DNA of 64,000 nt from Sedimentisphaerales bacterium. Lineage in GTDB: Bacteria; Planctomycetota; Phycisphaerae; Sedimentisphaerales; SM23-30. Every line of letters starts with the position of its first letter. The stretch's first letter is position 1. Shown piece after piece: positions 27,598-60,603 of the stretch. The notes under the pieces were generated by a model. That model was not told where the DNA came from. It worked only from the letters and a program-made list of their open reading frames with translations, and did no database searches. Both the position numbers and the translations under genes were made by a program. The DNA is taken from assembly GCA_963666285.1 (NCBI GenBank), contig OY762711.1; one strand, written 5' to 3'.

Positions 27598-27632
27598 CAC
27601 CACCAACACCCATAATCTACCACATTATCCCA
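27598..27632 (-). promoter_or_regulatory. candidate MraZ operator: four TGGNN boxes with exact 10-nt phasing
   Basis: The minus strand reads TGGGA-N5-TGGTA-N5-TGGGT-N5-TGGTG. The + strand complements are at 27628-32, 27618-22, 27608-12 and 27598-602. The array lies ~150-180 nt upstream of mraZ. Confidence 0.6.
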
Positions 27633-28065
27633 CACAAAACAAAAGAAAATTAAAGAATTTTTTCTATTCTAACGACAATCTTGCCGGGCTTCAATATATT
27701 GAATAAACCCATAAGTAAAAGCACAATATATAGAATGGGGCATTGTGGGGAATTTTTAACACTTATCAGACTTTTAGAAAATTATCGGTCTGTTTTATGT
27801 TAATTATTAACAACCTGATTTTCTATAAATCCTGAAATTGGGGCTTTTAATACTGTTAACTGGTTTTATACTATTACTTTACCAGCTTTTCCACAAGTTT
27901 TCCACAGATGTAATTTTTTATTAACAGTCTGGGCAGTCCCAGAGCACCACTCCGCCACACCACCGCCCCACAAGCTAAGAAAAAAGACAAAGCCCAATTG
28001 TAGTCCGCCAACCAAGTTGGCCAACTTCGCCAAAAGATGGCCAACACCATCCGCGCGTACATTAA

Positions 28066-41002: not shown

Positions 41003-41042
41003 AATATAACTCCTGTTATTTAATTTACTATTCAAGCTGTTG

Positions 41043-45599: not shown

Positions 45600-45872
45600 T
45601 TATGCCGGGTAAAATTCCAAAAACTTGTCATCTAAAACACTGTGTTTTGGTATTTCCACCGAACGTTCTTCTATCTTATTTTCAAATAGATTCCAGTCGC
45701 TAGCTAAATATTGACGACGAAACTCATCCATATCCAAGTTCTCTCTAATCTCTTCTGCAATACTTTTCCCATTACCAACAGGCTTAATAAATATCGCATC
45801 AGCAGGCGCAGCTGCAATTGCTCTGGCAGTTTTACCGACTGATCTTGATTCAACTTTAATCAACGATGCCAT
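45600..45872 (-). CDS. hypothetical phage protein
   Basis: A 90-aa ORF between the gp27-like gene and TerL. Confidence 0.4.
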   Translation of the reverse strand: MASLIKVESRSVGKTARAIAAAPADAIFIKPVGNGKSIAEEIRENLDMDEFRRQYLASDWNLFENKIEERSVEIPKHSVLDDKFLEFYPA

Positions 45873-46419
45873 AGATCTGCTCCTTAATAGCCTTCAATAC
45901 TTCAGGACTGATTTCTTTCTTATATGTTTTTTCAATCTTCTCTGCCGCCGCCTTCGCCTTCTCCTCCACCTGCTGCCTGACATACTTATCAGAAGCAATC
46001 GCAACCTGCGTGCATTCTTTGGCACACCTGGCAATATCTTTCAGCTCCAGGGCACTAAAGCTATCAGCATCGCTCACCAGCTCAATCAGGTGAGCTGTTA
46101 TCATCTCAGCTGCCGCCTTTTGTGTCTGGCTGGCCTTCTCACCGTCCATCCCCTTCATCGTCTCACGAGCGATCAGCCCGGCGTTCCTCATCCTGGTCAA
46201 AGCTTTAACCCGCTGACCGTACCTGCCCATCGCAGATTCTGAGATCTTATGCCCTTTAAGCTCGCAATAATTTACGCAATCGATATAGCGAGGCTTACCG
46301 ATCCAGTCATCATCCGGACAGAACCCATCCGGCCAGACACCATCAATCAGCATATCATCGATAGTTGTCTTAACCTCAACTGGCAGCTTTTCAATTGTAG
46401 AATGTGTTCTTCTGCTCAT
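45856..46419 (-). CDS. Mu gp27-like (DUF3486) protein, probable small terminase/DNA-recognition subunit
   Basis: The N-terminus RRTHSTIEKLPVEVKTTIDDML and a coiled-coil C-terminus are present. Its position directly upstream of TerL matches Mu-like phages. Confidence 0.6.
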   Translation of the reverse strand: MSRRTHSTIEKLPVEVKTTIDDMLIDGVWPDGFCPDDDWIGKPRYIDCVNYCELKGHKISESAMGRYGQRVKALTRMRNAGLIARETMKGMDGEKASQTQKAAAEMITAHLIELVSDADSFSALELKDIARCAKECTQVAIASDKYVRQQVEEKAKAAAEKIEKTYKKEISPEVLKAIKEQIYGIVD

Positions 46420-46684: not shown

Positions 46685-47038
46685 TTAATTTTTTTTCGAT
46701 TGTCCATTCCAGTCCTTAACCTCATCTAAGACGTTCTTGGTTATCTCACCAACCATCCGAGGCAGCTTCTCGAATAGTCCAACACTTGTTTTAATTTCTG
46801 TTAGAGTCTCCTGCAGCTTCTGCATCGCCTGTCGGTTAATCGCCGCCTCGCGCAGATACTGTTCAATGCCGACGAAATTCTCGTTACAGTTCAGACGACA
46901 TTGAGCCTGAGCTTTATCCAGCTCATTGGTTCTATCTTCAACTCGTGTTATCCTGGCATCCATTTTCTTAATCTGCCAGATAATCACTCCGCCGACAACG
47001 CCGGATATTATCGATGGTAACAACGTCACAAAATCCAT
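46685..47038 (-). CDS. bitopic membrane coiled-coil protein (DUF2730-like / i-spanin-like candidate)
   Basis: An N-terminal transmembrane segment (LLPSIISGVVGGVIIWQI) is followed by a long coiled coil. Confidence 0.45.
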   Translation of the reverse strand: MDFVTLLPSIISGVVGGVIIWQIKKMDARITRVEDRTNELDKAQAQCRLNCNENFVGIEQYLREAAINRQAMQKLQETLTEIKTSVGLFEKLPRMVGEITKNVLDEVKDWNGQSKKN

Positions 47039-47040
47039 AC

Positions 47041-47100
47041 ATTCGTGCCTATTCGTGTGAACCCTGCACTGTACGGTGCAAGGGGATTCGTGGTTAAAAT
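47041..47100 (+). repeat. 60-nt 'TTCGTG-hairpin-TTCGTGGT' element, copy 1
   Basis: The sequence is ATTCGTGCCTATTCGTGTGAACCCTGCACTGTACGGTGCAAGGGGATTCGTGGTTAAAA. It has the same architecture as 52838-52900 and 53680-53742. Confidence 0.85.
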
Positions 47101-47178
47101 TTCTTGCCGTTCAAACAAAATTTGGCGGAGCAGCAACAAGCTACCCCGCCTCGAAAGGATCTTCAACAGAAAAAGATA

Positions 47179-47862
47179 TTATGCTGTATTGGGAGTAGCC
47201 GTCGATAGCTTAACCGCCTGGACCTTATTCTCTCTCACCAGTGCCTCGGTACCCGCCGTCTGGTTCGCTTTCTGGTAATCCTTGAACCGATCGACCAACG
47301 CCGAATATCCGCTCTGTTCCAGCTCTGCAATAAACCCGTCATTAGCCTGCACAACTTCCTTAACCGCCGTCGCCGCCTGGCCGGCTTTCTTAACTGCTGT
47401 AACTATCCCACTGCTGCCCTTGAGCACCCCGGCTCCGACAAGAGCCATCGCCAGTGATCCGACCACACCTAGTCCCTGCTCAACCTGTTCGACAACCTCT
47501 TGCGTCTTTGGTCGCTGTGCAGCATCAAATTCCGCCTGTGCCGTTACCGTTTCATTCGTTAAAATATCTATATTTGATGTGTCGGGAATCGTCTCCGGCG
47601 GCCCGTAATACGTGACAATCGCATCAGCCTGTCTTTCCGCATTATCAGCCAGCCTTCCTGATATTGGAGGCAGCTTTTCTCCTGCAACCAGCTTGCCGAT
47701 CTGTCCGGCCAAAGCTTCAACAGTTTTCTTGTGAATTACCGCTGATTCCTTTTGAGCCTCGGTTGGTGCCAGACGCAATTTGTCACCGCAACCGCTAAGA
47801 AATACCAGGGAAATAATGCATACCAGCATCAATAGAAATGAGCCAAAACCCGTTTTAATCAT
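47179..47862 (-). CDS. phage lipoprotein, function unknown
   Basis: A signal peptide with lipobox (LVFLSGCG) is present and AAAAGGAG is a likely RBS. It is the first gene after the candidate late promoter. Confidence 0.55.
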   Translation of the reverse strand: MIKTGFGSFLLMLVCIISLVFLSGCGDKLRLAPTEAQKESAVIHKKTVEALAGQIGKLVAGEKLPPISGRLADNAERQADAIVTYYGPPETIPDTSNIDILTNETVTAQAEFDAAQRPKTQEVVEQVEQGLGVVGSLAMALVGAGVLKGSSGIVTAVKKAGQAATAVKEVVQANDGFIAELEQSGYSALVDRFKDYQKANQTAGTEALVRENKVQAVKLSTATPNTA

Positions 47863-47928
47863 AGCTTAAACTCCTTTTTAAGCAATGTTAAAGCAGCATC
47901 ATGCCGCCGTTTAACGGGCTGTAAACAT

Positions 47929-47977
47929 AAAAAAAAGCCCGTATGCTAAAGTTAATATCAACTCAGTCACACGGGCT
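47929..47977 (-). terminator. terminator-like hairpin plus U8 inside the 5' leader of the structural operon
   Basis: On the minus strand, AGCCCGU...ACGGGCU (47977..47936) is followed by UUUUUUUU (47936..47929). Confidence 0.4.
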
Positions 47978-48041
47978 GTATTGCCGTAAAAAATTAAATT
48001 GTTTTGAGCTAGGCCGTCACGCCATCATCGCTCGACATATA

Positions 48042-48071
48042 CCATTATCGGCTATCCCACCGAATTGTCAA
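48042..48071 (-). promoter_or_regulatory. sigma-70-like promoter TTGACA-18 nt-TAATGG
   Basis: On the minus strand, TTGACA is at 48071..48066 and TAATGG at 48047..48042. The promoter is immediately preceded by TCCGTGGTTAAG-A9. Confidence 0.45.
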
Positions 48072-48288
48072 CACCTTTTTTTTTCTTAACCACGGATGAA
48101 CGCAGACTCACACTGACACACAGAGGATCCAGCAGAAGTAGTGCATTACTAAGCATTATATCACTGCCGGCCAGGAACCGACTGATAATTGACCGATTAA
48201 CCCCGGATAACTTCTCAAGCTCTCTATAGCTGACCTCGTGCACTTCAAGCTGCTCTTTAACTAATTGCCTGATCTCTTCTATATCCAT
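48052..48288 (-). CDS. XRE-type helix-turn-helix protein
   Basis: The sequence is MDIEEIRQLVKEQLEVHEVSYRELEKLSGVNRSIISRFLAG. I prefer ATG 48288. The upstream extension in the track covers a terminator hairpin and a TTCGTGGT motif. Confidence 0.55.
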   Translation of the reverse strand: MDIEEIRQLVKEQLEVHEVSYRELEKLSGVNRSIISRFLAGSDIMLSNALLLLDPLCVSVSLRSSVVKKKKGVDNSVG

Positions 48289-48368
48289 TTTTTTCACCAC
48301 GAATAAAAACGCCCCGGCACCGTCGCGCCAGGGCAAAAAAACCTGTACCGCATGGCACAAGGGAAAGG

Positions 48369-48710
48369 TCACTTTTTTTCTCGCTCGAGCTGAAACAGCA
48401 CGTTACTGTACATTGCTCTTGTCTGCGGAGTGTTAGCCAGCTCCACTCTCTCTAGCCACCGGAAGTAGATTTCCGCTGTTCCAGTGCATATATACGGCAT
48501 CTGCCCGGCTTCTGATAATAGTTCGGCGATTCGGTCGAACATCTGGCAATGTATCTCATAGGGCATCTCGTCAGCATCGCTGTAAACAGCGTTATAATCG
48601 TTCTCGCTCTGCCAGTGGACAATTGGAATAACGGTAGGACTGCCGCCTTGTTTGGCGACAACCCCCATAATATAATCAAATCGCTCTTGAGCTAACTGTT
48701 CAATGTTCAT
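48369..48710 (-). CDS. hypothetical phage protein
   Basis: A 113-aa ORF packed against its neighbours. Confidence 0.45.
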   Translation of the reverse strand: MNIEQLAQERFDYIMGVVAKQGGSPTVIPIVHWQSENDYNAVYSDADEMPYEIHCQMFDRIAELLSEAGQMPYICTGTAEIYFRWLERVELANTPQTRAMYSNVLFQLEREKK

Positions 48711-48711
48711 A

Positions 48712-49023
48712 TCACTCTCCTGTCATCTTATTCCATAAGCCTCGTTTGGCGGTATTCTCTTTGTTTGTCACGCCATCTTTCCAGGCATCATAATCGCAGC
48801 CGCAATCGATGAAGCTTGCCAGCTCAGCTTTAAGTCTATCTTTTTTGTTTTGTTCGTTAGGGTAAGAGAAGCCGCCATTTACGAATAAGTCGAAGTATAT
48901 ATTAATTCTGCGATCATCTAGTTCTGGGCCGCCAATTAATAAGTTGTTATCGGCTTCTACGGTTTTAACAAAATTTAATTCTTCGCTATATCTTTTTTGG
49001 AACTCGTTCATTTTTATCTCCAT
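48712..49023 (-). CDS. hypothetical phage protein
   Basis: A 103-aa ORF whose stop lies 1 nt from the next start. Confidence 0.45.
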   Translation of the reverse strand: MEIKMNEFQKRYSEELNFVKTVEADNNLLIGGPELDDRRINIYFDLFVNGGFSYPNEQNKKDRLKAELASFIDCGCDYDAWKDGVTNKENTAKRGLWNKMTGE

Positions 49024-49068
49024 TATTTCAAAAAAAAATTATGCCCCGGCTAACCAGGGCTTGAATTG

Positions 49069-49362
49069 TTAGTTAATAATTCTACCTTGCTCACCTGACC
49101 ATGCAAACCTGTCACTGTTGGCTTTTGCAGCTTCAATAACGGCAACAGGAATAGCTTCGACGACGAAGTCAGGACAAACTGCCATATTAACACCGTTGTG
49201 CACCATAGGCCTGTCATTAGCATCAAGCATGACTTTATTGCGTTTACCAGCTTTAAATTCTTCTGCGATTCTGTTCCATGTTCTTGTCTTGGTTGTTTTT
49301 TTCATTTTCTTACCTTTCCGGCCCGTCGGCCATTTTGTTTTTTCTGAGGCCCCTTGCCTCAT
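49069..49362 (-). CDS. hypothetical phage protein (start uncertain; internal MKKTTKT start at 49305 is possible)
   Basis: The ORF comes from the track and has a basic N-terminus. Confidence 0.4.
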   Translation of the reverse strand: MRQGASEKTKWPTGRKGKKMKKTTKTRTWNRIAEEFKAGKRNKVMLDANDRPMVHNGVNMAVCPDFVVEAIPVAVIEAAKANSDRFAWSGEQGRIIN

Positions 49363-49540
49363 CTACCTATAATATACCACAGTGGTTGTGTCAATGCAAC
49401 CATAAAAGCAAAAAATATTTTCCCCATTCGTGCATATTCGTGTTAATTCGTGGTTAAATAAAGACTTACACTGCAAAACTTTTTCGTAAAATTTCGTGGC
49501 TTCTGTTTCTTAACCACGGATGAACGCAGATTCACACTGA

Positions 49541-50347
49541 TCAAAAATCTACAGAAGACTCCAACGCCTTTTTATGATCTAGTTCTACCCAGAGCTTAGC
49601 CCCAGCAAAATCATATCGAAAAAAATAACTTGATCGCTTATATCTTACGCTATTGTGAGGGTAAGACCTATCATTCCATCTTTTTGTGCTTTCGACCCAT
49701 AAATTATATTCATTCGGAAAGATATCCAATGCAACTCTTGCTGCATCTTCCGTTTTACAATTAGCCCACATGAATCCCATGTGATCTAAAACAAGCCCCA
49801 TTCCAGTGCCGTCCATCTTCCAAAAGCTAAAGACTTTGCAGCCATTATCGGCCTCGAAATCGAGCCTAACAGTGCCGATACAATCTTTGTTAACATTATA
49901 ACCCTTTGATTCAACATGCCGCTTGAACTCATTGTAACTCATGTAAACAGGTTCGGTCGATGGCAAAGCTGTCCAGCCAACATCATAAATAGAAATACTG
50001 CCATTATAGATGCTTTGTCGCAATTCATCATAGCTTAATTTCAACAGATCAACCTTACTGGTTGTCGATTCTAGTATCACTCTATTGCTTGATTCAACAA
50101 GTTCCTGGTTTATCTCTTGCAAGGCCTTTACTTGCTTCATGCGGTGTTTATCCCCAAATTGAAACCCGGCAATACTGCCAACCAGAAGAGTAATTATAGC
50201 AATGATAACAACCATACCCGAATTGCTCTTTTTGCCTCCTGGAACAATATTTTCAATCTCGCAAACCGGGCATTTCAGAGACTGCCCAACCAAAGATTCA
50301 GGTGCTTCCATCTGCTCTTTACAGCGTTTACACTTAAAATATACCAT
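49541..50347 (-). CDS. zinc-ribbon, single-pass membrane protein with a C-terminal domain of unknown function
   Basis: MVYFKCKRCKEQMEAPESLVGQSLKCPVCE has two CxxC pairs. A transmembrane segment (VVIIAIITLLVGSIAGF) follows, then a domain of ~180 aa. Confidence 0.55.
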   Translation of the reverse strand: MVYFKCKRCKEQMEAPESLVGQSLKCPVCEIENIVPGGKKSNSGMVVIIAIITLLVGSIAGFQFGDKHRMKQVKALQEINQELVESSNRVILESTTSKVDLLKLSYDELRQSIYNGSISIYDVGWTALPSTEPVYMSYNEFKRHVESKGYNVNKDCIGTVRLDFEADNGCKVFSFWKMDGTGMGLVLDHMGFMWANCKTEDAARVALDIFPNEYNLWVESTKRWNDRSYPHNSVRYKRSSYFFRYDFAGAKLWVELDHKKALESSVDF

Positions 50348-50663
50348 AACTCACACCTCATTTTCTGTTAAAATCTATATAATTTAATAACTCAGAAATA
50401 TTTTTTAGAAATTTTCTGCCTTATTATATATCGGCAGTATCTTTATCAATACTGATATCAAAATTATTATCAGACCTGCAAGCACTCACATAATAAATTG
50501 TAAAATATATACTTGTGTTGCATTAAAAAAACATTAAAGTTTTTATATCTGGACTAAAATGATTCACTCATGAAAAGTTGGGGGTTTGCTATGGAAAAAA
50601 TTGAAACTAATACAGACGTAAAAAAACATAAACATTACGATCTAGTAAAAGAGCTAATCAAAC

Positions 50664-50912
50664 CTATAGCTCTCCAGATTCTTTTAGATCTAAAATCACC
50701 TGCCGTACTAAAGGCACAAGAGAATTCGAGTCATCAAAACCGCCAGCCATAAGTGCTGTCTGAACCTCAGCAGGTAATTTAATCCAAAACTTTGCAGCTC
50801 CCTCAACAGCTCTTTTTTTTATATAGCCACGTTCTTCAACCTGGAGATCAAACGCTTTTATCACCTCAACGTCAATATCTCCACCAAAGTTTTTCTTTTT
50901 TTTTCCTGTCAT
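50664..50912 (-). CDS. ribbon-helix-helix-like DNA-binding protein (prophage repressor candidate)
   Basis: A basic N-terminus is followed by a beta-strand/two-helix pattern (GGDIDVEVIKAFDLQVEERGYIKKRAVEGAAKFWIKL). The gene is divergent from the early operon. Confidence 0.4.
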   Translation of the reverse strand: MTGKKKKNFGGDIDVEVIKAFDLQVEERGYIKKRAVEGAAKFWIKLPAEVQTALMAGGFDDSNSLVPLVRQVILDLKESGEL

Positions 50913-51069
50913 ATCTTAATTATTCTCAAGTTCTTATGAGTTTTCAACGCATTTATCCTTGAGTTTTCTTGATTTTTCTTGATGTTTACGTTTGACACAT
51001 TCCGATAAGGGTGTTAATATTCACTCAAGATTACTCAAGATTTCTTGATAATTAAATATAGAGATCAAT
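50913..51069. promoter_or_regulatory. divergent switch region with phased TCTTGA/TCAAGA operator-like repeats
   Basis: TCCTTGAG, TTCTTGAT and TTCTTGAT start at 50956, 50966 and 50976 (10-bp phase). ACTCAAGA x2 is at 51023-30 and 51033-40, followed by an inverted TTTCTTGAT at 51041-49. Confidence 0.6.
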
Positions 51070-51267
51070 ATGGCAAGAGCAAAAACAGTAAAAGCTATCA
51101 CATTATCAAGCAACGTCTATCCAGAATTGATAGAACTGGCTAACGAAGCTGCCAGGGCTGAAGAGCGTTCCGTTCACGATCTTGCAAATCGTATTCTCAC
51201 GGCAGAATTTCAGAATATTATCAACGCCCATCGTCAATCTATCACTAACAAGAAATCAGCGAGTTAA
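51070..51267 (+). CDS. ribbon-helix-helix (CopG/Arc-like) protein
   Basis: KAITLSSNVYPELIELANEAARAEERSVHDLANRIL shows the RHH strand-helix-helix pattern. Confidence 0.5.
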   Translation: MARAKTVKAITLSSNVYPELIELANEAARAEERSVHDLANRILTAEFQNIINAHRQSITNKKSAS

Positions 51268-51270
51268 TTT

Positions 51271-51450
51271 ATGTCAGACGAATATGTAAAATCCGTCAGC
51301 TTCAACCACGATACAGACCCCGGCATCATCGCCCTGGCCAACGAAGGTGCCAGGTCCGCCGGTTGCAGTGTCGCTGAATTCGTCCGCCGCGTCCTGACAG
51401 CCGAGCTGCCTCGCTACGCACCAAATAGTAATATCAACTCAGTCCTATAG
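51271..51450 (+). CDS. second ribbon-helix-helix paralogue (59 aa, below the ORF-track cutoff)
   Basis: My own translation is MSDEYVKSVSFNHDTDPGIIALANEGARSAGCSVAEFVRRVLTAELPRYAPNSNINSVL. It has the same pattern as the preceding gene. Confidence 0.45.
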   Translation: MSDEYVKSVSFNHDTDPGIIALANEGARSAGCSVAEFVRRVLTAELPRYAPNSNINSVL

Positions 51451-51956
51451 CGGCTGAGTAAAAAACACCAGGCAGCGTCACCTGCCTGGCATAAATATAA
51501 CCGGGCACGGATAGCCCGCAAAAATAATTACGGAAGGACTTGTTATGACCGCAAAAAACTTAAAACGCATCGGCATCGCCGAAACCATAACTCTTCACTC
51601 TTCACTCTTAGTTCTTCACCCAGCAAGGTTTCATCCTTCATAATTCATAATTCATTCGAATCTGCCTCCCCCGGTTCTTGCCGGAACGATTTAAAGCAGG
51701 CAGGGCAACTGGCGAGCTTGCCACATCCGTTCGCCACATATAGTAACTAACTTTGACAAGTAAATATAGACAGGTTCCAGTAGCCAGGTTTCAGGTTCCA
51801 GTGAAGACATAAAATCAGCTTCGCCGAAGGCGAGACCTTCCCTAACACCTAATACCCAATACCTAACACCTGTTAAATCGACCTCCTTTTTCAAAGCGGC
51901 GAGCTCAACGCACTCGCCGGTAAACGTGGGGCCGGGGCGGCAGGGACGCTGCTCAA

Positions 51957-52412
51957 ATGGTTAAGGACGACCGCCCGGCCAATTTTATTATCCTGGCAGC
52001 TGACAGCTCATCGCTCGAAGCTAATCAAAACTTAAAACAGATTTTCAAAGAACAATACAACTATAGCACCGGCAGTTTATGCCGGGTAGATAAAAATAGA
52101 ATGAATTTTATACCGTACATGATAATCACAATTATTACAACAGACCAAATCGGAGCGGTAGCCTTCGAGCTAGTCGAAAGACAGACCATGTCGGCTGCAG
52201 ATGCTATACAGCAAATCCAGGCAGTCGCCCTCGTAGGCAGCTCCGATTCTTTAGATCTCGACTCAATCGAGGCGATGTTGGCAGAGACTTACTCCGGTCA
52301 ACGGGCAAACAACGATCACTCCTCAGGCCAACCGCCTCACTTTGTTAATAACGTGACAATGCACACATTTTTGGATATCACAACTCAATGGCTCAAGCTC
52401 GCTCCGGATTAG
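51957..52412 (+). CDS. hypothetical phage early protein
   Basis: A 151-aa ORF from the track, with no recognised motif. Confidence 0.4.
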   Translation: MVKDDRPANFIILAADSSSLEANQNLKQIFKEQYNYSTGSLCRVDKNRMNFIPYMIITIITTDQIGAVAFELVERQTMSAADAIQQIQAVALVGSSDSLDLDSIEAMLAETYSGQRANNDHSSGQPPHFVNNVTMHTFLDITTQWLKLAPD

Positions 52413-52600
52413 CTGCCTGCCAGTAACCTTATGACGATCAAATTAAGATGAGCGATAGCGACAACCGGCCCTTATGCCTTATCCCTTATCCCTCATCCCT
52501 GAATTCATTAACCATGTTACTATTGTTAAACATTAAGTATAAGCCGCTGTCGGCGGCGTAGCCGACAGCTTTTTTCAAAAACACTAAACCACAGATAAAC

Positions 52601-52831
52601 ATGCCAGAAATAAAAAATGGACAACCGATCAGAATCGACGATCTATCAGAAGTATTATCTGTATATCTTGCGATCAACGTAGGTTTAACAAGCAGAGGCG
52701 AACCAATGTGTAACACTTGCGGAGCAATAGCCAAAAGAAAAAAAGGCAATCATTTCAAAGATGTCTCACATGCCAAAGGTTGTTCCGCTATCAAGGCGGT
52801 AGAAATCGCAAAGATCCTTGACGAATTATAA
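52601..52831 (+). CDS. hypothetical small Cys/His-containing protein
   Basis: A 76-aa ORF containing CNTCG...H...H..C, a possible zinc site. Confidence 0.4.
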   Translation: MPEIKNGQPIRIDDLSEVLSVYLAINVGLTSRGEPMCNTCGAIAKRKKGNHFKDVSHAKGCSAIKAVEIAKILDEL

Positions 52832-52837
52832 ATTAAT

Positions 52838-52900
52838 AATCCGTGTTAATCCGTGTGAACCCTGCACCGGATGGTGCAAGGGGATTCGTGGTCCAAAAAA
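52838..52900 (+). repeat. 60-nt TCCGTG-hairpin-TTCGTGGT element, copy 2
   Basis: The sequence is AATCCGTGTTAATCCGTGTGAACCCTGCACCGGATGGTGCAAGGGGATTCGTGGTCCAAAAAAAC. Confidence 0.85.
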
Positions 52901-52932
52901 ACAATCATCAAAGAACAGGAAACTTAAAACAA

Positions 52933-53205
52933 ATGTTACACGCAAGCGACAAATATAATGGCCGCATTATCGACAAGGAAGGATTGATCCCGGCTGATGA
53001 ACCGGTGTTCTTGTTACGAGCGCAGGACCCATTATCGATCGATCTACTCGAAGACTATATCGAGAAACTGGAACAGGAACTGGACGAGCGGGTACCTAAC
53101 ATTACAGATGACAACGTACAGAAGCTGGACGATCTCAGACCTCACCTTGACCGTTTTCGAGATTGGCAAGCATTGCACCCTGATAAGGTAAAACTTCCAG
53201 ACTAA
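52933..53205 (+). CDS. hypothetical phage early protein
   Basis: I prefer ATG 52933 (MLHASDKYNG...). The track's N-terminal extension is a translation of the repeat element. Confidence 0.45.
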   Translation: MLHASDKYNGRIIDKEGLIPADEPVFLLRAQDPLSIDLLEDYIEKLEQELDERVPNITDDNVQKLDDLRPHLDRFRDWQALHPDKVKLPD

Positions 53206-53209
53206 TATT

Positions 53210-53473
53210 ATGAGCAAATTCAACAAAATGAAATCAGATTTTCAAAACTGGATGGACAACAAACTAGAATCCAGGCAGCTGAAAAACCTTAACCGGCATA
53301 CTTCTATCTGCCTCGACCTGGAACGCAAGGAACCGTTCAAGATCAAACAGATAAAGCCTGATTCGATTTGCAGCTCTGAAACCAGTATCAGTTTCAACGA
53401 AGCAACCGCTAAACAGCTTTACGATTTCCTGGAAGAGCTATTCAGAGAAGAGGAGGTCAGCAATGGCAAATGA
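53210..53473 (+). CDS. hypothetical phage early protein
   Basis: An 87-aa ORF from the track. Confidence 0.4.
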   Translation: MSKFNKMKSDFQNWMDNKLESRQLKNLNRHTSICLDLERKEPFKIKQIKPDSICSSETSISFNEATAKQLYDFLEELFREEEVSNGK

Positions 53474-53687
53474 TATTATTTCAGATGACGCTTGGCTATA
53501 TTTTATCGATAGATGGTTGCATCCGAGTAGGCCAACGACTGCCCTGGTGTACAGAATGATGATCCTTGAAAATAAAACATATAAACATGATTGGAAAATC
53601 CCATCATTGTCAACCATGTACAGGTTAATCGAAAATCGTATTTCAAAAAAAACTCAGAAATATTTCCGTAAAGGAATTTATTCGTGA
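53463..53687 (+). CDS. hypothetical phage early protein
   Basis: A 74-aa ORF with an 11-nt overlap with the previous gene. Confidence 0.4.
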   Translation: MANDIISDDAWLYFIDRWLHPSRPTTALVYRMMILENKTYKHDWKIPSLSTMYRLIENRISKKTQKYFRKGIYS

Positions 53688-53742
53688 CCATTCGCGTGAA
53701 CCCTGCACCGGATGGTGCAAGAGAATTCGTGGTCCAAAAAAA
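53680..53742 (+). repeat. 60-nt TTCGTG-hairpin-TTCGTGGT element, copy 3
   Basis: The sequence is ATTCGTGACCATTCGCGTGAACCCTGCACCGGATGGTGCAAGAGAATTCGTGGTCCAAAAAAAC. The following 35 nt up to the ATG are also conserved with copy 2. Confidence 0.85.
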
Positions 53743-53769
53743 CAATCATTAAAGAACAGGAAACTCAAA

Positions 53770-53961
53770 ATGAAAGGACTATTAACAATAACAATATGTA
53801 TCGCACTCGCCTGGCTGCTGGCAGCTATCGGGGTATGGCTGAACATATGTAAAAGAGACTTTACCGTAACCGGCATGATAGTAATCTTATGCCTCATCGG
53901 CATCGCCTGGGACCTGACATGCAGCAAGAGCAGCGACAACCAAGAGACTACTGGCCGATAA
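53770..53961 (+). CDS. small two-TM membrane protein
   Basis: The sequence is MKGLLTITICIALAWLLAAIGVWLN...GMIVILCLIGIAW. It has the same leader as the gene at 52933. Confidence 0.45.
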   Translation: MKGLLTITICIALAWLLAAIGVWLNICKRDFTVTGMIVILCLIGIAWDLTCSKSSDNQETTGR

Positions 53962-54167
53962 TCAACCGGCTCTACGCTGCCGGTAAGCAACTGACCTGGC
54001 CGGAGCAATGCTTCATCAGCCAGTGCAATATAGCCCGCCAGACATACGGTCATGCCATGCAGCTCAGCGATAAGCAGTTTGACTGGCTCGACAGATTAAA
54101 AGAAAAATACGAACACTTAATAAAGGATCATCATGATAAACCTGGAACTAACAAACGATCAGTTTAA
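53919..54167 (+). CDS. hypothetical protein (start uncertain)
   Basis: The track ORF is 53889-54167 and overlaps the preceding ORF. No motif was recognised. Confidence 0.3.
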   Translation: MQQEQRQPRDYWPIINRLYAAGKQLTWPEQCFISQCNIARQTYGHAMQLSDKQFDWLDRLKEKYEHLIKDHHDKPGTNKRSV

Positions 54168-54309
54168 CACAATCATGCTCGCCTTAAAGAGCGAGCTGAA
54201 TCAGCACATGCGGTCAGGCAATATGCCGAAATCCGAGCAGGTTGTAGTAGATGTAATAGACACAATCGAGCAACAGGTAAAAGCTCAGGTAGAAGCAGCC
54301 GCAGCTTAA
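54133..54309 (+). CDS. possible 58-aa protein (below the ORF-track cutoff)
   Basis: My own translation is MINLELTNDQFNTIMLALKSELNQHMRSGNMPKSEQVVVDVIDTIEQQVKAQVEAAAA. Confidence 0.3.
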   Translation: MINLELTNDQFNTIMLALKSELNQHMRSGNMPKSEQVVVDVIDTIEQQVKAQVEAAAA

Positions 54310-54379
54310 TTCGTGACCATTCGTGGTCAAAAATATTCCCAGCAAGGACGCTGGCATAACTAATAGGAACGGACGCCTT

Positions 54380-54868
54380 ATGTTAGATAAGGACACAATT
54401 GAAGTGAGTGACGATCATCTACTACTGAGCAATAAGCTGGAAGAACATAATATCACAGTCCAGCAGCTTTCAAACATGACAGGGCGTGCCTGCTCAACCT
54501 TATATAGATATTTGATGGGCGGGCAAACTATTCCGTCAATCGTCTGGCGTGTTATATACCAGAAAACCAAAGACCAGGAGATCTTAAAACTTATCACTGG
54601 CGATCTGCCATTAGTAATAGCTGACATGTCGGAGATCCTGGACCCGAATTTCGGTATCCCGGAGCTCCGCAAGATCATGGAGATGCGACAGGCCCAGCTC
54701 GACAGTGAACAGAACATCGTTAACATTCTAGCCGATGGTAAGATAGACGCCAGCGACCGGAAAGAGATCGAGGAATATCGCAAAAACATCAAACAGCAGC
54801 TCCGCACCGAATACCAGATATATCTAACCATCGACCGTTTATACGAAAAGGCTATAAGAAATGCTTGA
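54380..54868 (+). CDS. helix-turn-helix DNA-binding protein upstream of the transposase (Ner/Cro-position)
   Basis: ITVQQLSNMTGRACSTLYRYLMGGQTIP is an HTH. I prefer ATG 54380. The track extension covers TTCGTG repeats. Confidence 0.5.
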   Translation: MLDKDTIEVSDDHLLLSNKLEEHNITVQQLSNMTGRACSTLYRYLMGGQTIPSIVWRVIYQKTKDQEILKLITGDLPLVIADMSEILDPNFGIPELRKIMEMRQAQLDSEQNIVNILADGKIDASDRKEIEEYRKNIKQQLRTEYQIYLTIDRLYEKAIRNA

Positions 54869-55283
54869 ACAATATAATGACATTAACATACCTTGTCCAG
54901 TGGAAGATTGCGACGGGCACCTGACAGAGCCGCTCATCTGGAACAATGAAATAATTACAGGCACCGCCCCAACCCGCCGGGTTTTCGGCTCTTGTAATTG
55001 TTGCGGCTGCGACATCAACCTGGAGCAATATCAGGCCCACCACCGCTGGTTCATCAGCCGCTATTATATCAGCGGCGAGATGGACGGCACCGGTCAGATG
55101 CCAAGCGACACTACCTGGCATGATATTCAGCCGGTCCCGAAGACCGCTGTGCTGATCCCGGTCGAAGCTTTCGAGCGGGTAGAACGTCAGCGTGAGCTTA
55201 CCAAAGACCAGATCACAAATCTTTTGGACACCTTTAAACAGACATTAACAGACATTCAAAGACTAATCAAAAATAATTTATAA
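54861..55283 (+). CDS. Cys-rich hypothetical protein
   Basis: CPVEDCDGH...CNCCGC suggests possible zinc binding, followed by a C-terminal coiled coil. Confidence 0.4.
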   Translation: MLEQYNDINIPCPVEDCDGHLTEPLIWNNEIITGTAPTRRVFGSCNCCGCDINLEQYQAHHRWFISRYYISGEMDGTGQMPSDTTWHDIQPVPKTAVLIPVEAFERVERQRELTKDQITNLLDTFKQTLTDIQRLIKNNL

Positions 55284-55381
55284 CGGAGATAAAATGAGCC
55301 ATCAGCGAAATATCAAATCAGCCCCGCCCCAGGCGGCACCTTCCCTGATGCCTTATCCCTTATCCCTTATCCCTGTATAAC

Positions 55382-57376
55382 ATGAAATACTTAACCGTAA
55401 AACAAGCAGCCGAAAAGCTGAAATTGAACGAAGGCCACATACGCAGGCTATGTGCGTCCGGCGACCTCCTGGGAGCAGCACGCAAGGGTAAAAGCTGGCA
55501 GATCCCGGTATCTGCTCATCCGGATCTGCGCGGAGCCCTGGCACCGGCAGTCAAAGACGATCCAGAAGAACTGCTCAAGGTACCGCTGCCGAAACGTCAG
55601 CAGGCAACAGAGCGGCTCGGCCTGTTAAAACAGATGGAGAAATATATCGGCGGCTATCTAAACCACGGCGGCAACCGTACAGACGCTATCGCCTGTTTCG
55701 CTGACATGCAAGGCTGCTCGGTCCGGTCGCTTACCAGATGGTCCAAGCGATATCGAGAGCAGGGCATACTTGGCCTTGTTGATGCCAGGGGCGGCAGAAC
55801 CGACGACGATTCAATTAGTCCGGAAGCCTGGGATATATTCAAGGACATGTGGCTCGACCAGCGTCGACTGAGCGTACCGACCTGCTATAAGAATTTGGTA
55901 TATCTTAACCACTCGCAGCAGCAAAACTGGCAGCTCCCATCCGAGCGAAACATGTATCGTCTCATCCATGAGCGGATCCCGATGCCGGCCCAGGTATTGC
56001 ATCGGGAGGGCATGGAAGCCTACAACGCCAAGTGTGCCCCTTACATAATAACAGACAGAGAGGCGATCGAACCGGGCAGCGTCTGGATCGGCGACCATCA
56101 TCAATGTAACTGCTGGGTGCGAAATCAGGGCCGATGGATAAGGCCATGGCTAACAGCTTGGGAAGATATGCGTAGCCGTGCATTGGTCGGCTATTGCGTT
56201 ACAGCCAGCCCTAACCAATCAACCATCATGCTCGCCTTCAGGAAAGGCTGCCAGGACTACGGCCCGCCCGAATCGGTAAAGATCGATAACGGTAAAGATT
56301 ACGATTCCCAGATGTGGACCGGCACCACAAAAAAACAACGCCAGAAAAAACGCGGCAAGGTTTTGGACGACCAGCAATGCCAGGCGATCATCGGTTTGTA
56401 CGCTATGATGAATATCGACGTAAGCTTCTCGATTCCTTACCACCCTCAGAGCAAGGCAATCGAGCGGTTCTTCGACAGCTTCGACCGTCAGCTCATCAAG
56501 TCATTTGACACTTATTGCGGCAAAGGCACCCACGCCAAACCGGACACTCTCAACGACTACCTGAAAACGGACAAGGCCATCGCCGCCGCCGACGATCTCG
56601 AGAGCTTCGCCGCCAAGGTCGACCGATATCTAAAGGTATATAACTCTCAGCCGCACTCCGCGAACAAAGGCCAAACCCCGGCATCTGTCATGTCAACCCG
56701 TCAGAGCCGCCGTGTTATAGCCGACGGAACAATGGACCTTCTCTTACAGGTCTGGTCTGGCGAACTGACAATTGGCAAAAACGGCGTCAAGTTCGAAGGC
56801 AACTGGTACGGCCAGTTCAACCCTGAACTATTAAGACGTCAAGGCCAGAAAGTTCGGGTAAGCTACGATCCAGACGACATCACAGAGGTCCGGGTCTTCA
56901 CCAAGGATTTCGAATTTATCACAACCGCAACCCAGCACGAACTGGAGCAGTATGGCAAAGTACACCAGTCAAGCTTGCGAGAAGCTATGAAGCAGAAACG
57001 CAAAGCTGCTAAGGATATGAAGTCATATCGCAAGACAACCAGGATCGCCAACATGCGGCTATCAGATCTGACAATCGAAGCAGCAGAGCACGCCGCTCAA
57101 CTAACAGAGCAAGATCAGCAGCAGCGAACACCACAGCCGCCAACTATCAAGCCGGTCCAGACCCCGCTCGACAACGCGGTAACAGATGTTAAACGTAAAG
57201 AACAACAACAGCAGCTACGGAAAGCTGTCGGAGCAGACACCGTCTCGGCTATCGATCTGGATTTAGATAGCCTGACCCAGCCGGTCAGCTCCTCGGAAAA
57301 CTCGTTTAGCTTTAACCTATCGGCTTTAGAGCCGAACGAAGAGCCGACCATAAGGCTTTTCGAAAATGGACAATAA
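55382..57376 (+). CDS. Mu A-like DDE transposase
   Basis: An N-terminal MerR/excisionase-type HTH is present (LTVKQAAEKLKLNEGHIRRLCASG). The rve-type DDE core is WIGDHHQCN (D), KIDNGKDY (D), HPQSKAIERFF (E). A C-terminal Mu-transposase-like beta-barrel region follows. Confidence 0.85.
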   Translation: MKYLTVKQAAEKLKLNEGHIRRLCASGDLLGAARKGKSWQIPVSAHPDLRGALAPAVKDDPEELLKVPLPKRQQATERLGLLKQMEKYIGGYLNHGGNRTDAIACFADMQGCSVRSLTRWSKRYREQGILGLVDARGGRTDDDSISPEAWDIFKDMWLDQRRLSVPTCYKNLVYLNHSQQQNWQLPSERNMYRLIHERIPMPAQVLHREGMEAYNAKCAPYIITDREAIEPGSVWIGDHHQCNCWVRNQGRWIRPWLTAWEDMRSRALVGYCVTASPNQSTIMLAFRKGCQDYGPPESVKIDNGKDYDSQMWTGTTKKQRQKKRGKVLDDQQCQAIIGLYAMMNIDVSFSIPYHPQSKAIERFFDSFDRQLIKSFDTYCGKGTHAKPDTLNDYLKTDKAIAAADDLESFAAKVDRYLKVYNSQPHSANKGQTPASVMSTRQSRRVIADGTMDLLLQVWSGELTIGKNGVKFEGNWYGQFNPELLRRQGQKVRVSYDPDDITEVRVFTKDFEFITTATQHELEQYGKVHQSSLREAMKQKRKAAKDMKSYRKTTRIANMRLSDLTIEAAEHAAQLTEQDQQQRTPQPPTIKPVQTPLDNAVTDVKRKEQQQQLRKAVGADTVSAIDLDLDSLTQPVSSSENSFSFNLSALEPNEEPTIRLFENGQ

Positions 57377-58526
57377 CAACAACAACGACAATGAGCTTGA
57401 ATATCTAAAAAAAGGATTGTCATTAGAGCAGAATCTAATTTTGGAAAGGATTCCAAAAGTGTTCACAGAAGAAAACACAGCAAAAGCAATAGCCAACATA
57501 AGATCGTTTATGAAGGACCATTCCTTCACCAACAAGCAGCTCGCCGACCGTTGCGGCTTCAGCCAGACAACAGTCAGCCAACTAATCAACGGCAAATATC
57601 CAGGCGACACACCAAAAGCGTTAACAACTATTATTAAGTTCATGAACGCTCACTGTCGCAATAAGCTGCACCACAACGAAATGCCCGAATATGTCGAGAC
57701 CTCAGTCGCTCGTGAGATCGGAGCACTCATCACCAACACCACATCCTTCAGCCAGAGCGAAGGCAAAATCGGCCTGGTTATTGGAGATGGCGGCCACGGC
57801 AAAACCCACTGCCTGCAAGCCTGGTGCAAAGTCAACCCGCACAACTATTATATCAGGCTGCATTCCTGCATGACCAACAAGGATATCATGGTAGCGATCG
57901 CTAAAACAGTCGGCAGCGATTATTCCGGCAGCATCGCTTACATAATAGATAAGCTCGCAGCGGAACTGGCCGACCGGTTTGCTGTCATAATTATTGATGA
58001 GGCCAGCAACCTCAAGGTCAAAACTCTTGACCTGCTCCGCCAGGCTATATGCCTGGAATGCGGCTGCCCGATGATTCTGTCAGGCAACGCCGCTCTAATA
58101 AAAACAATCCACAAAGATTCAGCTCGCAGCGGCTACGAATCAATCGATCAGTTTAACAGCAGAGTTATGCGAACCTTGAACCTTGACCTGGCCGCCTCAA
58201 CCAGCACAGACCCGAACACAGGTCTCTATACCGAAAAGGATATTATCGATTTATATCAATATCAGGGTATCGGACTGGCCAAAGATGCCGTCGATACCCT
58301 GCGTAAGATCTGCCAGACCCCACACTCCGGCAGATTGCGTGTCTGTGCCGATATCATCAAAGCCCTGCACACCAGCCCAGACATATACAAAGCTCAACTG
58401 ATCACAGGCCAAAACATAATCACAGCTATTCGCATGCTGCAGCTTCCATTCGCCGACCGGCTGCCGGTCACAGTTGTCAAACCAAAACATCAAACATCCA
58501 GCCAGCAGGCCAAAGCCACAGCATAA
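57366..58526 (+). CDS. Mu B / TniB-like AAA+ transposition ATPase with N-terminal HTH
   Basis: FTNKQLADRCGFSQTTVSQLINGKY is an HTH. Walker A is GDGGHGKT and Walker B is VIIIDEAS. The gene overlaps the transposase by 11 nt. Confidence 0.8.
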   Translation: MDNNNNNDNELEYLKKGLSLEQNLILERIPKVFTEENTAKAIANIRSFMKDHSFTNKQLADRCGFSQTTVSQLINGKYPGDTPKALTTIIKFMNAHCRNKLHHNEMPEYVETSVAREIGALITNTTSFSQSEGKIGLVIGDGGHGKTHCLQAWCKVNPHNYYIRLHSCMTNKDIMVAIAKTVGSDYSGSIAYIIDKLAAELADRFAVIIIDEASNLKVKTLDLLRQAICLECGCPMILSGNAALIKTIHKDSARSGYESIDQFNSRVMRTLNLDLAASTSTDPNTGLYTEKDIIDLYQYQGIGLAKDAVDTLRKICQTPHSGRLRVCADIIKALHTSPDIYKAQLITGQNIITAIRMLQLPFADRLPVTVVKPKHQTSSQQAKATA

Positions 58527-58538
58527 CAGAGGTTTAAC

Positions 58539-59033
58539 ATGCCATTAAACTATAAAAAAGTACAGCTCTTACAAATCGCTATGAAAGCAGCCGGCCTGCG
58601 TAAACCGGAACGTACCGAAGCGAGCGAAGCTCAGTACCTGTTCTACCTGGCCCAGTTCAAAGACAGTAAGGGCAGCCCCATCACCAGCAGCAAATATCTG
58701 TCGAACGCCCAGATGGACACCATCCTGGAAACATGCGAGGAGCTCGGCTGGCGAAATCCAAACAAGAGCCGCCGCAACTACCACGGCGAGATCAGCCAGG
58801 CAATGATAGATGGTATCAATGCCCTGGCCGGAGATCTCGGCTGGCAGCCTCACCAGCTATCAGGCATGGTCCGGAGGATGACCAGGCAAACCCAATCAGA
58901 TCCCAGCGAGCTGACAGTTGCCGAAGGCCGCAAGGTAATCGAAGCAATGAAAGCTATGCTCAAGAGACACAACCCGGACATCACCGGCAATAACTTAACC
59001 GACATTCAACAGAAATTTGAATTTAATTCATAA
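58539..59033 (+). CDS. GemA / Mu gp16-like (DUF1018) protein
   Basis: KKVQLLQIAMKAAGL...SSKYLSNAQMDTILETCEELGW matches the gp16 family pattern as I remember it. The gene lies after the B-like gene. Confidence 0.55.
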   Translation: MPLNYKKVQLLQIAMKAAGLRKPERTEASEAQYLFYLAQFKDSKGSPITSSKYLSNAQMDTILETCEELGWRNPNKSRRNYHGEISQAMIDGINALAGDLGWQPHQLSGMVRRMTRQTQSDPSELTVAEGRKVIEAMKAMLKRHNPDITGNNLTDIQQKFEFNS

Positions 59034-59047
59034 CGAAAGGAAGTATT

Positions 59048-59797
59048 ATGGGCATAAATGAACGCAGAAAAACAAAATATACGCCATCACCTTGGCTAAT
59101 AGCTGAAGATGTATTCGATAAAGAAAAGTTTTTAGATTTTTGTGAGAGCGTTTGGGATGCTACTCAATCTAACGGGAACCTTTCAGATACATTTAAGGTG
59201 ATACAAACTTCTGAAGAGACAGGTTCTCTTACTATAGCTGTGATTGGAAATGGACCTCAATCAGAAGGAAACTCAAAGCTAATTGCTTCAGCTCCGGAAC
59301 TTCTAAGAATGCTAGATAAAACATCTGCCTACATTGCAAGAGGTAGTGATCCTGCATCGCTTCTTGATGAGATTGCAAAAGTCATGAGTAAAGCAACTGG
59401 CGTAACTATCACACTTCATCGTAATGCACCATCTGGTCAGGTCGATTTAGATTCATTAGAATGCTTTCTGGATGAGCTGGGTCGCGGACTGTTAAACACT
59501 ATTTGCAATGTTATCAATTCCCTCGTTAACAGTGCAGCAAATAATAAAATACACCACGCTGTCAAAGTTGCCGACAACTGGGAAAGTCCAGATATTAAAG
59601 CAATCATCAACTACAACCGAGAGAGCGACATCGAAAAGAATCTAAGCGAAATCAGCCAGAATATCAGAATCCACTGGAAAAATTATTTCGAACACAACTA
59701 TAAAAACATAATCAGTAAATATCCCGGCCTGACAGACAAATCGGTAGCGTCAGACCAGACATTAGATACTGGCTCTAGTAACTGTCCGGATGAATAA
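59048..59797 (+). CDS. hypothetical phage protein
   Basis: A 249-aa ORF with no recognised motif. Confidence 0.45.
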   Translation: MGINERRKTKYTPSPWLIAEDVFDKEKFLDFCESVWDATQSNGNLSDTFKVIQTSEETGSLTIAVIGNGPQSEGNSKLIASAPELLRMLDKTSAYIARGSDPASLLDEIAKVMSKATGVTITLHRNAPSGQVDLDSLECFLDELGRGLLNTICNVINSLVNSAANNKIHHAVKVADNWESPDIKAIINYNRESDIEKNLSEISQNIRIHWKNYFEHNYKNIISKYPGLTDKSVASDQTLDTGSSNCPDE

Positions 59798-59873
59798 ATC
59801 CGTGGTTCAAAGATTAAATTATTCGTGTCTATTTGTGTCCATCCGTGGTTCAAACAGACAAGGAGTAAATGAA

Positions 59874-60099: not shown

Positions 60100-60603
60100 A
60101 TGGCAAAACGCACCAAATCTAAAACCGACCTGATCCAGATCGAAACCTTCGATCAGGCTGACAAGCTATTAAAAAGAGCTAGCGAACTACAAGCCTCTAT
60201 CGATCAGGCAAACAACGAACTGACCGCCATGATCGACCAGCTAAAATCCCATACCAAAGATACAGTCGGGCCTCTCCAGCTTGAGATCGACAAGATTACT
60301 AAATCCCTTCAGGCATACTGCACCGCCAACAAACAAGAATTTGGTAACGCCCAGAGCAAAAAACTAAACCACGGAAAGTTAGGTTGGCGCAGATCTTCCA
60401 GTATCACCGTCAGAAATGACACTTTAGACCTCATTAAACAGCTATTCAAACCTGCCTTAAAAAAGGTTTGTATCGTTGTTAAAGAGACCGTCAGCAAAGA
60501 TGCCCTGGCAGATCTAACCGATGACCAGCTCACCGACATCAACGCCAGGCGTAACCACAAAAACATATTTTTCATCGAACCGGAAAAGGTTGAGATTAAA
60601 TAA
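60100..60603 (+). CDS. gam: Gam-like host-nuclease inhibitor
   Basis: An N-terminal coiled coil (ADKLLKRASELQASIDQANNELTAMIDQLK) is present, with ...KLNHGKLGWRRSSSITV... and a Mu Gam family-like length and layout. Confidence 0.65.
   Translation: MAKRTKSKTDLIQIETFDQADKLLKRASELQASIDQANNELTAMIDQLKSHTKDTVGPLQLEIDKITKSLQAYCTANKQEFGNAQSKKLNHGKLGWRRSSSITVRNDTLDLIKQLFKPALKKVCIVVKETVSKDALADLTDDQLTDINARRNHKNIFFIEPEKVEIK

Follow-up and report, generated by a model that had tools for sequence, protein, structure and literature searches.

Winged-helix regulators of the OmpR, PhoB and SARP type bind direct repeats of 6-7 bp with a period of 10-11 bp, placed on one face of the helix (Pho boxes, and SARP heptamers at 11-bp spacing); their sites comprise two to four units and sometimes extend over the -35 element, and some of these regulators are global or essential. 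Published MraZ operators are GTGG[G/T] boxes at 10-bp spacing, and the ends and operators of phage Mu consist of short repeated sites at roughly helical spacing, with CACGA(A/T)A-like half sites in Mu R1-R2. Here we analyse phased heptads of the form ATTCGTG or ATCCGTG (together ATYCGTG) that occupy the gaps between cistrons of a Mu-like transposable prophage, in a window of 64,000 nucleotides (the whole stretch of DNA analysed) from contig OY762711.1 of a Sedimentisphaerales bacterium (class Phycisphaerae; assembly GCA_963666285.1). The closest published parallel that we found is formed by the unexplained TAACTGA heptamer direct repeats in intergenic regions of Beggiatoaceae, Cyanobacteria and Bacteroidetes (MacGregor 2015, PMC4679880), alongside cyanobacterial short tandem heptamer repeats. 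Like the arrays described below, the TAACTGA repeats are intergenic sets (of 2-6 heptamers) that often stand just before start codons, are patchily distributed over phyla, precede genes without a common function and have a binder that is also unknown; unlike them, they follow one another without spacers at a 7-nt period, mostly run in the direction of the gene downstream, and were proposed to act on RNA (PMC4679880). The present arrays differ in their 10-bp period, variable 3-nt spacers and GGTT terminal unit, in their occurrence in both orientations and as inverted pairs, and in their high density in phages. No paper containing the array strings was found in the literature searched, the one apparent match being to mutagenesis primers, and a search for work on promoter motifs of Akkermansia was without result.

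Sequence comparison shows that the copies in the window are a local, unusually dense cluster of a widespread and apparently undescribed family of phased-heptad arrays. We tentatively read these arrays as helically phased platforms to which an oligomeric DNA-binding protein, conserved and probably encoded by the host, would bind; we infer the binding, the host origin and the effect on transcription from the pattern of conservation and placement.

The ATTCGTG/ATCCGTG repeat in the prophage is real and far beyond chance. Exact matches to the core TYCGTGGT number 13 in the window, where 2.21 are expected and 100 shuffles gave no more than 7; ten of the 13, all intergenic, lie between 47.0 and 59.9 kb. 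These are the ten copies of a preliminary description made from the sequence alone, nine of which stand exactly where it placed them, while the remaining one is displaced by a single base (53726-33, not 53725-32). The three further matches look like chance matches; one is in a host gene (16853, plus strand), one in the portal gene (42599-42606, minus strand) and one in gam (60368-75, minus strand). The tandem pattern ATYCGTG-N3-ATYCGTG, with at most one mismatch, occurs eight times against 0.04 expected, on the plus strand only, and bears out the earlier remark that most cores are preceded by heptads at 10-nt spacing; on the minus strand, the copies at 48096 and 49520 form short arrays whose first unit is degenerate, (A/G)TCTGCG-TTC-ATCCGTGGTT. 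The A-run reported after the core is likewise seen, as an A-rich run 3' of nearly every copy. The array in the window thus has the form (ATYCGTG-N3)n-ATYCGTGGT, followed by T/C and the A-rich run. There are eight array loci in 13 kb of the prophage and none in the adjacent 28 kb of host DNA or in 20.5 kb of a prophage-free relative. Homology to this relative (L247) stops at 27936, so that the prophage starts at about 27.94-28.0 kb and continues past the end of the window at 64 kb; the copies, formerly placed at the centre of the prophage, are central to right of centre. The individual sites are as follows.

47041-47094, plus strand: array with hairpin insert (ATTCGTG, ATTCGTG, hairpin at 47061-47084, then ATTCGTGGT)
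48089-48107, minus strand: short array GTCTGCG-TTC-ATCCGTGGT, with an A-run behind it and, beyond that, the promoter at 48071-48044
48296-48304, minus strand: single terminal unit ATTCGTGGT, overlapping the T-tract of a terminator-like hairpin at 48335-48310
49426-49454, plus strand: triple array ATTCGTG-CAT-ATTCGTG-TTA-ATTCGTGGT, anti-oriented to the genes
49513-49531, minus strand: short array ATCTGCG-TTC-ATCCGTGGT, just past the stop codon of gene 49541-50347
52839-52892, plus strand: array with hairpin insert, starting 8 nt past the stop codon of gene 52601-52831
53680-53733, plus strand: array with hairpin insert, the first heptad including the TGA stop codon of the I-gamma-like gene 53463-53687
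54309-54327, plus strand: double array ATTCGTG-ACC-ATTCGTGGT, starting at the last base of the TAA stop codon of gene 54133-54309
From 59798, within 59798-59849, plus strand: single unit ATCCGTGGT, directly past the TAA stop codon of gene 59048-59797
59821-59849, plus strand: triple array ATTCGTG-TCT-ATTTGTG-TCC-ATCCGTGGT, followed by a Shine-Dalgarno sequence and an ATG

The arrays of the prophage occupy the gaps between cistrons. In its plus arm every array is co-oriented with the genes, begins at or within a few bases of a stop codon and ends 20-50 nt ahead of the next start codon; the array at 52839-52892 is followed by an A-run, a Shine-Dalgarno sequence and the ATG at 52933, and that at 54309-54327 lies 52 nt upstream of the helix-turn-helix (HTH) gene 54380-54868, the first gene ahead of the MuA and MuB genes. 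In the minus arm they lie on both sides of a unit of promoter, gene and terminator (47179-47862) and ahead of the head operon. Here the array at 47041-47094 is anti-oriented to the minus-strand genes, with one end 2 nt from the ATG of gene 46685-47038, and those at 49426-49454 and 49513-49531 form an inward-facing pair, the former upstream of a minus-strand TTGACA promoter-like site at about 49395-49365 that was read by eye and is unlisted in the consensus scan. A promoter beside one copy had been noted previously and is indeed present, 18 nt downstream of the copy at 48096, with the sequence TTGACA-16-GATAAT (11/12 consensus matches, 48071-48044, minus strand) instead of TTGACA-18-TAATGG. The copy said to lie 7 nt from a start codon is the single unit at 48296-48304, upstream of the ATG at 48289-48291 with which the HTH gene 48052-48291 starts. 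Other copies adjoin start or stop codons without a recognisable promoter.

Three elements of about 60 nt (47041-47094, 52839-52892 and 53680-53733) have, as previously described, a common bulged hairpin, CCCTGCACC/GGTGCAAGGG, which forms a 28-nt insert between units 2 and 3 of the array and was not found elsewhere than in these three copies. As to the accompanying statement that changes between copies leave the stem intact, there are two substitutions in the stem, of which a G->A in the element at 53 kb breaks a C-G pair, and a C->T gives G.U in RNA and a mismatch in DNA. Because the three copies are near-identical, they offer no evidence of covariation. An intrinsic terminator was rejected as a general explanation of the arrays, as single arrays have no hairpin and the insert is unique to the window. 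Two cassettes, 52828-52935 and 53669-53772, agree at about 95% of positions over about 100 nt, a stretch that takes in the A-run and the Shine-Dalgarno region of the downstream 5' untranslated region (UTR); such near-identity suggests a recent duplication, or gene conversion, within the prophage.

The same array is found in many other phages. Scanning IMG/VR with ATYCGTGNNNATYCGTGGT returned at least 120 stretches from unrelated phage types, namely Mu-like phages, phages with a lambda gpA terminase, an SU10 capsid, an SPP1 portal or an HK97 capsid, and one with an integrase; the figures on array anatomy, orientation and neighbours given here and below refer to the phage and metagenome matches listed. 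A third heptad in register is present in about 70% of the real IMG/VR matches, though the search pattern did not demand one, and some contigs hold 6-10 arrays per 10-14 kb. Array queries against GenBank phages and PLSDB plasmids gave no match, although the low-complexity filter of BLAST may hide matches. Among the relatives, a prophage in a metagenome-assembled genome (MAG) of Planctomycetota (L001), whose MuA is 47% identical to that of the window phage, carries ATCCGCG-AAA-ATCCGTG-AA-ATCCGTGGTTAAAAAA past a zinc-ribbon/transmembrane gene and upstream of a TTGACA promoter, at a position syntenic with the array at 49513-49531. A consistent polarity of the arrays relative to MuA was ruled out, since they are co-oriented with it in the window and opposite to it in L001, L014 and L042.

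No protein family common to the array-bearing contigs was found by all-against-all BLASTP, phmmer or iterated hidden Markov models; the widest family reaches at most about 10-16 of the approximately 220 array-bearing loci, and the recurrent ones are structural. This bears on the proposal of the preliminary description that the arrays are binding sites for a regulator of this phage, in other words operators for a prophage-encoded protein (HTH 48052 or 54380, the product of 60956 or the ribbon-helix-helix (RHH) proteins, to which I-gamma 53463 can be added as a candidate) coordinating both arms. The strong local enrichment of the arrays fits such a proposal, as do the copies that adjoin a strong promoter and regulator genes and the presence of an I-gamma-like DNA-binding protein between two arrays, and phage proteins of widespread families could in principle be common to bacteria. 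Nevertheless, the model appears improbable: the same arrays occur in unrelated phages and in chromosomes, the candidate proteins do not recur among the array-bearing contigs, the I-gamma protein is unique to this phage, and the immunity region is built on other repeats. A further relative, L002, has homologues of the 54380 gene, the 60956 gene and MuA, yet at most one two-unit array in 21.7 kb; no match to the 48052 gene or the RHH proteins was found there. Thus, the sites are not limited to the phage and to relatives that encode a given regulator, nor was a co-occurring gene for a DNA-binding protein found. Of the earlier proposal, the idea of a protein-binding site on DNA fits the anatomy (conserved heptads, variable spacers, a 10-bp period and both orientations), whereas a regulator of this phage is unsupported. 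Since the motif is not a private regulon of the prophage, its occurrence in both divergent arms gives no ground, contrary to what had been argued, for assigning them to a single regulatory system.

The surrounding element is a Mu-like transposable prophage with MuA, MuB and Gam, whose two arms diverge from 50912/51070. Its recognised genes and its left end are listed here.

55382-57376: MuA
57366-58526: MuB
60100-60603: Gam
58539-59033: GemA-like
45856-46419: gp27-like
44241-45569: terminase
41828-44233: portal/F fusion
39635-41056: major capsid protein
27937-28010, minus strand: left prophage end, with GTTGGCC/GTTGGCG repeats and zero ATYCGTG heptads

A comparison with the operator/enhancer and end sites of Mu is natural in a Mu-like element. 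Here, however, the arrays are internal and numerous, whereas the end carries GTTGGC(C/G) and the switch region ACTCAAGAT-type repeats. The GTTGGCC/GTTGGCG repeats at the left end are candidate MuA-binding sites. In the switch region, which lies between a leftward gene of 82 aa and two rightward RHH-like genes, the divergent TTGACA promoters at 50912/51070 are surrounded by the non-array repeat ACTCAAGAT/TTCTTGAT, and L001 has TACTAAGAAT twice at the same switch position (7640-7690); these repeats are likely the true immunity operators. Sites for the transposase, which the preliminary description had also considered, are excluded, because the prophage end and switch region carry other repeats and the arrays extend over 13 kb and occur in non-transposable phages as well. 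The gene 53463-53687 (+), flanked on either side by a hairpin-bearing array, encodes a free-standing protein of 74 aa that consists of the MuA I-gamma subdomain only (Pfam HTH_Tnp_Mu_2, E = 4.9e-9) and may be a modulator of transposition or end binding. A separate I-gamma gene was not found in L001, L002, L014 or L065, and the protein was ruled out as a general binder of the arrays on the ground that it is unique to this phage. The early region of L001 contains a tRNA-like sequence, read by eye, at 8515-8590.

Arrays are also found in bacterial chromosomes. A metagenome scan with the triple array as query returned at least 120 stretches, with far below 1 expected, which adjoin ordinary bacterial genes such as alaS, leuB, rpmH, glmS, mreB-mreC and ABC transporter genes; for the neighbours, 148 genes and 775 matched NCBIfam families were recorded. 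Real N-termini begin 11-30 nt downstream of the GGTT end in AlaRS (twice), ArgRS, KsgA, RsfS, Def and LeuB (twice), and also in FolK, RmlA/B-like proteins and PolX. The array is upstream of alaS in two genomes despite different upstream neighbours, and likewise upstream of leuB in two genomes; together with the syntenic array of L001, these conserved positions are signs of function. The taxa reached are Planctomycetota, including Phycisphaerae, a Lentisphaerota-like lineage and, with one MAG contig, Acidobacteria. In the approximately 110 kb of host-class chromosome sampled there is a single array locus, an outward-facing pair, about 76 nt long, between mreB and mreC in a complete 4.9-Mb Phycisphaerae genome (L250, 17600-17700); one arm of the pair is of the T variant and the other of the C variant. 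The mreB-mreC spacer measures 141 nt in this genome and 67 nt, without an array, in Anaerohalosphaera lusitana (L249). A similar density of the motif throughout the host chromosome had been named as an observation that would speak against a role in the phage; instead, the motif is rare in this host-class DNA and strongly enriched in the prophage, yet it is not phage-specific. In a much-sampled Lentisphaerota-like organism (L243-L246, about 8440-8900), tandem units of 41 nt lie between gcvH and rpmH, each of them a triple array and with 9-nt- and 10-nt-period units alternating; strains whose YidC is identical differ in the number of units, which ranges from about 5 to 12.

A survey of about 330 arrays gives the following anatomy. 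Arrays consist of 2-5 units, with a mode of 3, and always end in the extended unit ATYCGTGGTT(AA), with the GTT tail in about 70-80%. The period is 10 bp, or 9 bp in some lineages. Only the heptads are conserved; the 3-nt spacers are variable and pyrimidine-rich, mostly TTC, TCC or TTA. All-C and all-T variants are about equal in number (the T variant makes up about 45%) and are seldom mixed within an array. One locus (L242, about 2520-2580) has, beside an ATYCGTG array, a second 7+3 direct repeat with another heptad (AAATTACGGT, four times), and the heptad variants TTTCGTG, ATCTGTG and CTCTGTG are seen at other loci; by their sequences, phased-heptad arrays may come in several families. Relative to the neighbouring genes, phage loci comprise 70 anti-oriented, 28 co-oriented and 10 divergent arrays, and metagenome loci 37 anti-oriented, 28 co-oriented, 9 convergent and 6 divergent. 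It is the GGTT end that lies close to a gene boundary, either 0-36 nt from the stop codon of a gene on the opposite strand, for which the TAA in TTAACC often serves, or 5-30 nt from where a gene on its own strand starts. Co- and anti-oriented arrays do not differ in their tail sequence. TTAA is found 3' of only about 40-50% of the tips. Sigma-70-like promoters show no clear peak at a fixed offset from the arrays, a comparison in which GC-rich genomes limit power, and a sigma-70 promoter built from the array itself was rejected for want of a consistent -35/-10 in the consensus and of a fixed offset. An integron attC site was also discarded, as inspection shows the core and inverse core in the wrong order.

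The paired and tandem arrangements raise the question of whether the arrays are selfish, that is, extragenic elements resembling repetitive extragenic palindromic (REP) sequences, REPINs or miniature inverted-repeat transposable elements, spread by themselves or by an unlinked enzyme, which have landed repeatedly and have no phage-specific regulatory role; any binding, by a mobilising enzyme, gyrase or a nucleoid protein, would then serve the element or DNA topology. As in REP/REPIN, MIRU and Correia elements, the arrays are high-copy and intergenic, at gene ends and in operons, occur as dispersed singlets and inverted doublets and vary in tandem number. Among metagenome arrays, 39% are preceded at 0-120 nt by an inverted partner, the tips pointing outward, against 6% with an inward-facing partner downstream. 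The spacer difference between the two Phycisphaerae genomes, the variable number of 41-nt units between closely similar strains, the presence of arrays in all intergenic types, convergent ones included, the patchy distribution across phyla and between related phages, and neighbouring genes without a functional pattern would all be accommodated. The segment CGTG-TYN-AT also fits the old gyrase cleavage consensus, YRTGNYNNY, and is offered as a lead only. Against this stands the structure of the pairs: the arms are phased direct heptads instead of a palindrome, and inverted partners differ in their spacers and even in the Y position, so that complementarity for a hairpin is not maintained. Neither a transposase or REP-associated tyrosine transposase (RAYT)-like gene linked to the arrays, within or beside pairs, nor a consistent target duplication was found; the TTAA beyond the tips is too irregular for one. 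Moreover, single arrays dominate in phages, the orthologous positions before alaS and leuB are kept, and a spread over several phyla and many phages would be unusual for a REP family. We regard a selfish origin, the alternative to the platform for a host factor, as rather unlikely, while recognising that the two readings overlap. A transposon with cargo was ruled out separately, given that pairs 0.2-3 kb apart enclose no transposase.

The placement of the plus-arm arrays, co-oriented and running from a stop codon to shortly before the next start, and of the many bacterial copies 11-30 nt upstream of real start codons, would also suit an action on transcription or at the RNA level, either as serial pause sites of RNA polymerase or by recruiting an RNA-binding protein to 5' UTRs and the gaps between cistrons. 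With a 10-nt period, every YG step has a G at -10 whichever way the array is read, and a universal machine such as RNA polymerase would account for the same sequence in different phyla. On its reverse strand the C variant matches the CsrA consensus, (A/U)CANGGANG(U/A). We give this explanation little credence, however, since both orientations to transcription are common, so that conservation does not extend to any one RNA sequence, the period of some arrays is 9 nt, and the pause consensus does not account for the conserved ATYC. CsrA sites in particular were ruled out by the mixed orientation and by the T variant, which has GAA in place of GGA and removes CsrA for about half of the arrays. 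No Rfam 15 family matches the arrays at the gathering score. The Rfam matches in the window are to group II introns only, in two copies of about 690 nt (15082-15767 and 22235-22920, minus strand) that match the D1-D4 and domain V/VI models; no reverse-transcriptase reading frame was found between the D1-D4 and domain V/VI matches, and both copies look like ORF-less introns in host DNA.

Phased direct repeats recall proteins already known to bind such sites. In the host, mraZ (26976-27452) and rsmH (25603-26616, minus strand), the start of the dcw cluster, lie directly left of the prophage, which is inserted about 300-400 bp upstream of the host mraZ operator. This operator, GTGGGataatGTGGTagattatGGGTgttgGTGGT at about 27590-27640, is of the textbook type and is kept in relatives. 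The 7+3 build of the arrays with its GTG[G/T] core resembles MraZ operators: direct repeats numbering three to five and set at a 10-bp period are common to both, as is a GTGG core, which the arrays have in their terminal unit. A lineage-specific variant of the DnaA box could be advanced on similar grounds, as the terminal CGTGGTTAA matches the reverse DnaA box TGTGGATAA at 7/9 positions and the large tandem block lies beside rpmH, in a dnaN-containing region of 21.7 kb without a canonical DnaA box. Either of these known binders is nevertheless very improbable. Although the period fits MraZ, the operators of the host and of L247 and L248, where the pattern GTGGG-N5-GTGGT-N6-GGGT-N4-GTGGT is clear, have no ATYC, and the internal array units have no GG (GTGT, GTGC or GTGA instead). 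No arrays were found upstream of mraZ in four Phycisphaerae loci, and two of these (L249, L250) have only two GTGGG/GTGGT boxes there. For DnaA (TTWTNCACA), the internal units match at only 4-5 of 9 positions, and the host has canonical-looking TTTTCCACA boxes. Two DnaA-box-like TTTTCCACA sequences, 11 bp apart (27887 and 27898, spanning 27887-27906, plus strand), are found in the stretch that separates the mraZ operator from the prophage end. Sites of the OmpR/PhoB/SARP type are similar in being direct repeats at 10-11 bp (here 10 bp, or 9 in some lineages, in 2-5 units), but the arrays differ from them in that no fixed -10 geometry was found, in occurring in both orientations and at convergent-gene positions, and in that their regulon would have no functional theme.

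We return to the reading of the arrays as phased platforms for a host factor. Conservation of the heptads alone, helical phasing, occurrence in both orientations and non-complementary arms together argue for recognition of double-stranded DNA by an oligomeric protein. Each heptad would be the site of one protomer, all on one helix face; the extended terminal unit would nucleate binding, and the oligomeric protein would then fill the weaker upstream units cooperatively. That no phage protein was found to co-occur with the arrays, that chromosomes carry them too and that they extend over several phyla argues for a conserved, host-encoded factor. This binder would not come from the conserved early genes of the phage and would most likely be a host factor conserved across the Planctomycetota-Verrucomicrobiota-Chlamydiota (PVC) group (Planctomycetota, Lentisphaerota) and Acidobacteriota. 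Bound arrays would stand exactly at gene boundaries, in the interval that opens with a stop codon and closes shortly ahead of the following start codon or promoter. As the arrays stand at cistron gaps and bracket a promoter-gene-terminator unit, an effect on transcription across boundaries is the most economical inference, and it might take the form of promoter occlusion, activation, a roadblock or an insulator. Phages of these hosts would accumulate arrays at high density.

Several observations weigh against the host-factor reading. The binding protein was sought, and none was identified in sequence searches; the genes adjacent to arrays share no function, and some arrays are placed between convergent genes or within operons. 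The copy-number-variable tandem blocks fit a selfish repeat equally, a fixed distance to a sigma-70-like promoter was not found, and the tail is the same in both orientations. The single locus in about 110 kb of host-class chromosome implies that a host factor would have few chromosomal sites in this lineage.

A broader formulation, which is possible but which we hold with more doubt, is that ATYCGTG arrays are an undescribed cross-phylum element of the PVC group and Acidobacteriota, a platform for an oligomeric protein or a topoisomerase that marks gene boundaries, and that phages load arrays, up to one per 1.5-2 kb, to join or exploit this host system. If the arrays do bind a conserved host factor, they would represent an unrecognised layer of genome organisation or gene control in the little-studied phyla Planctomycetota, Lentisphaerota and Acidobacteriota and in their phages. 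They could then serve as a signature linking uncultured phages to their hosts, as a bait for the factor and as a candidate part for genetic tools.

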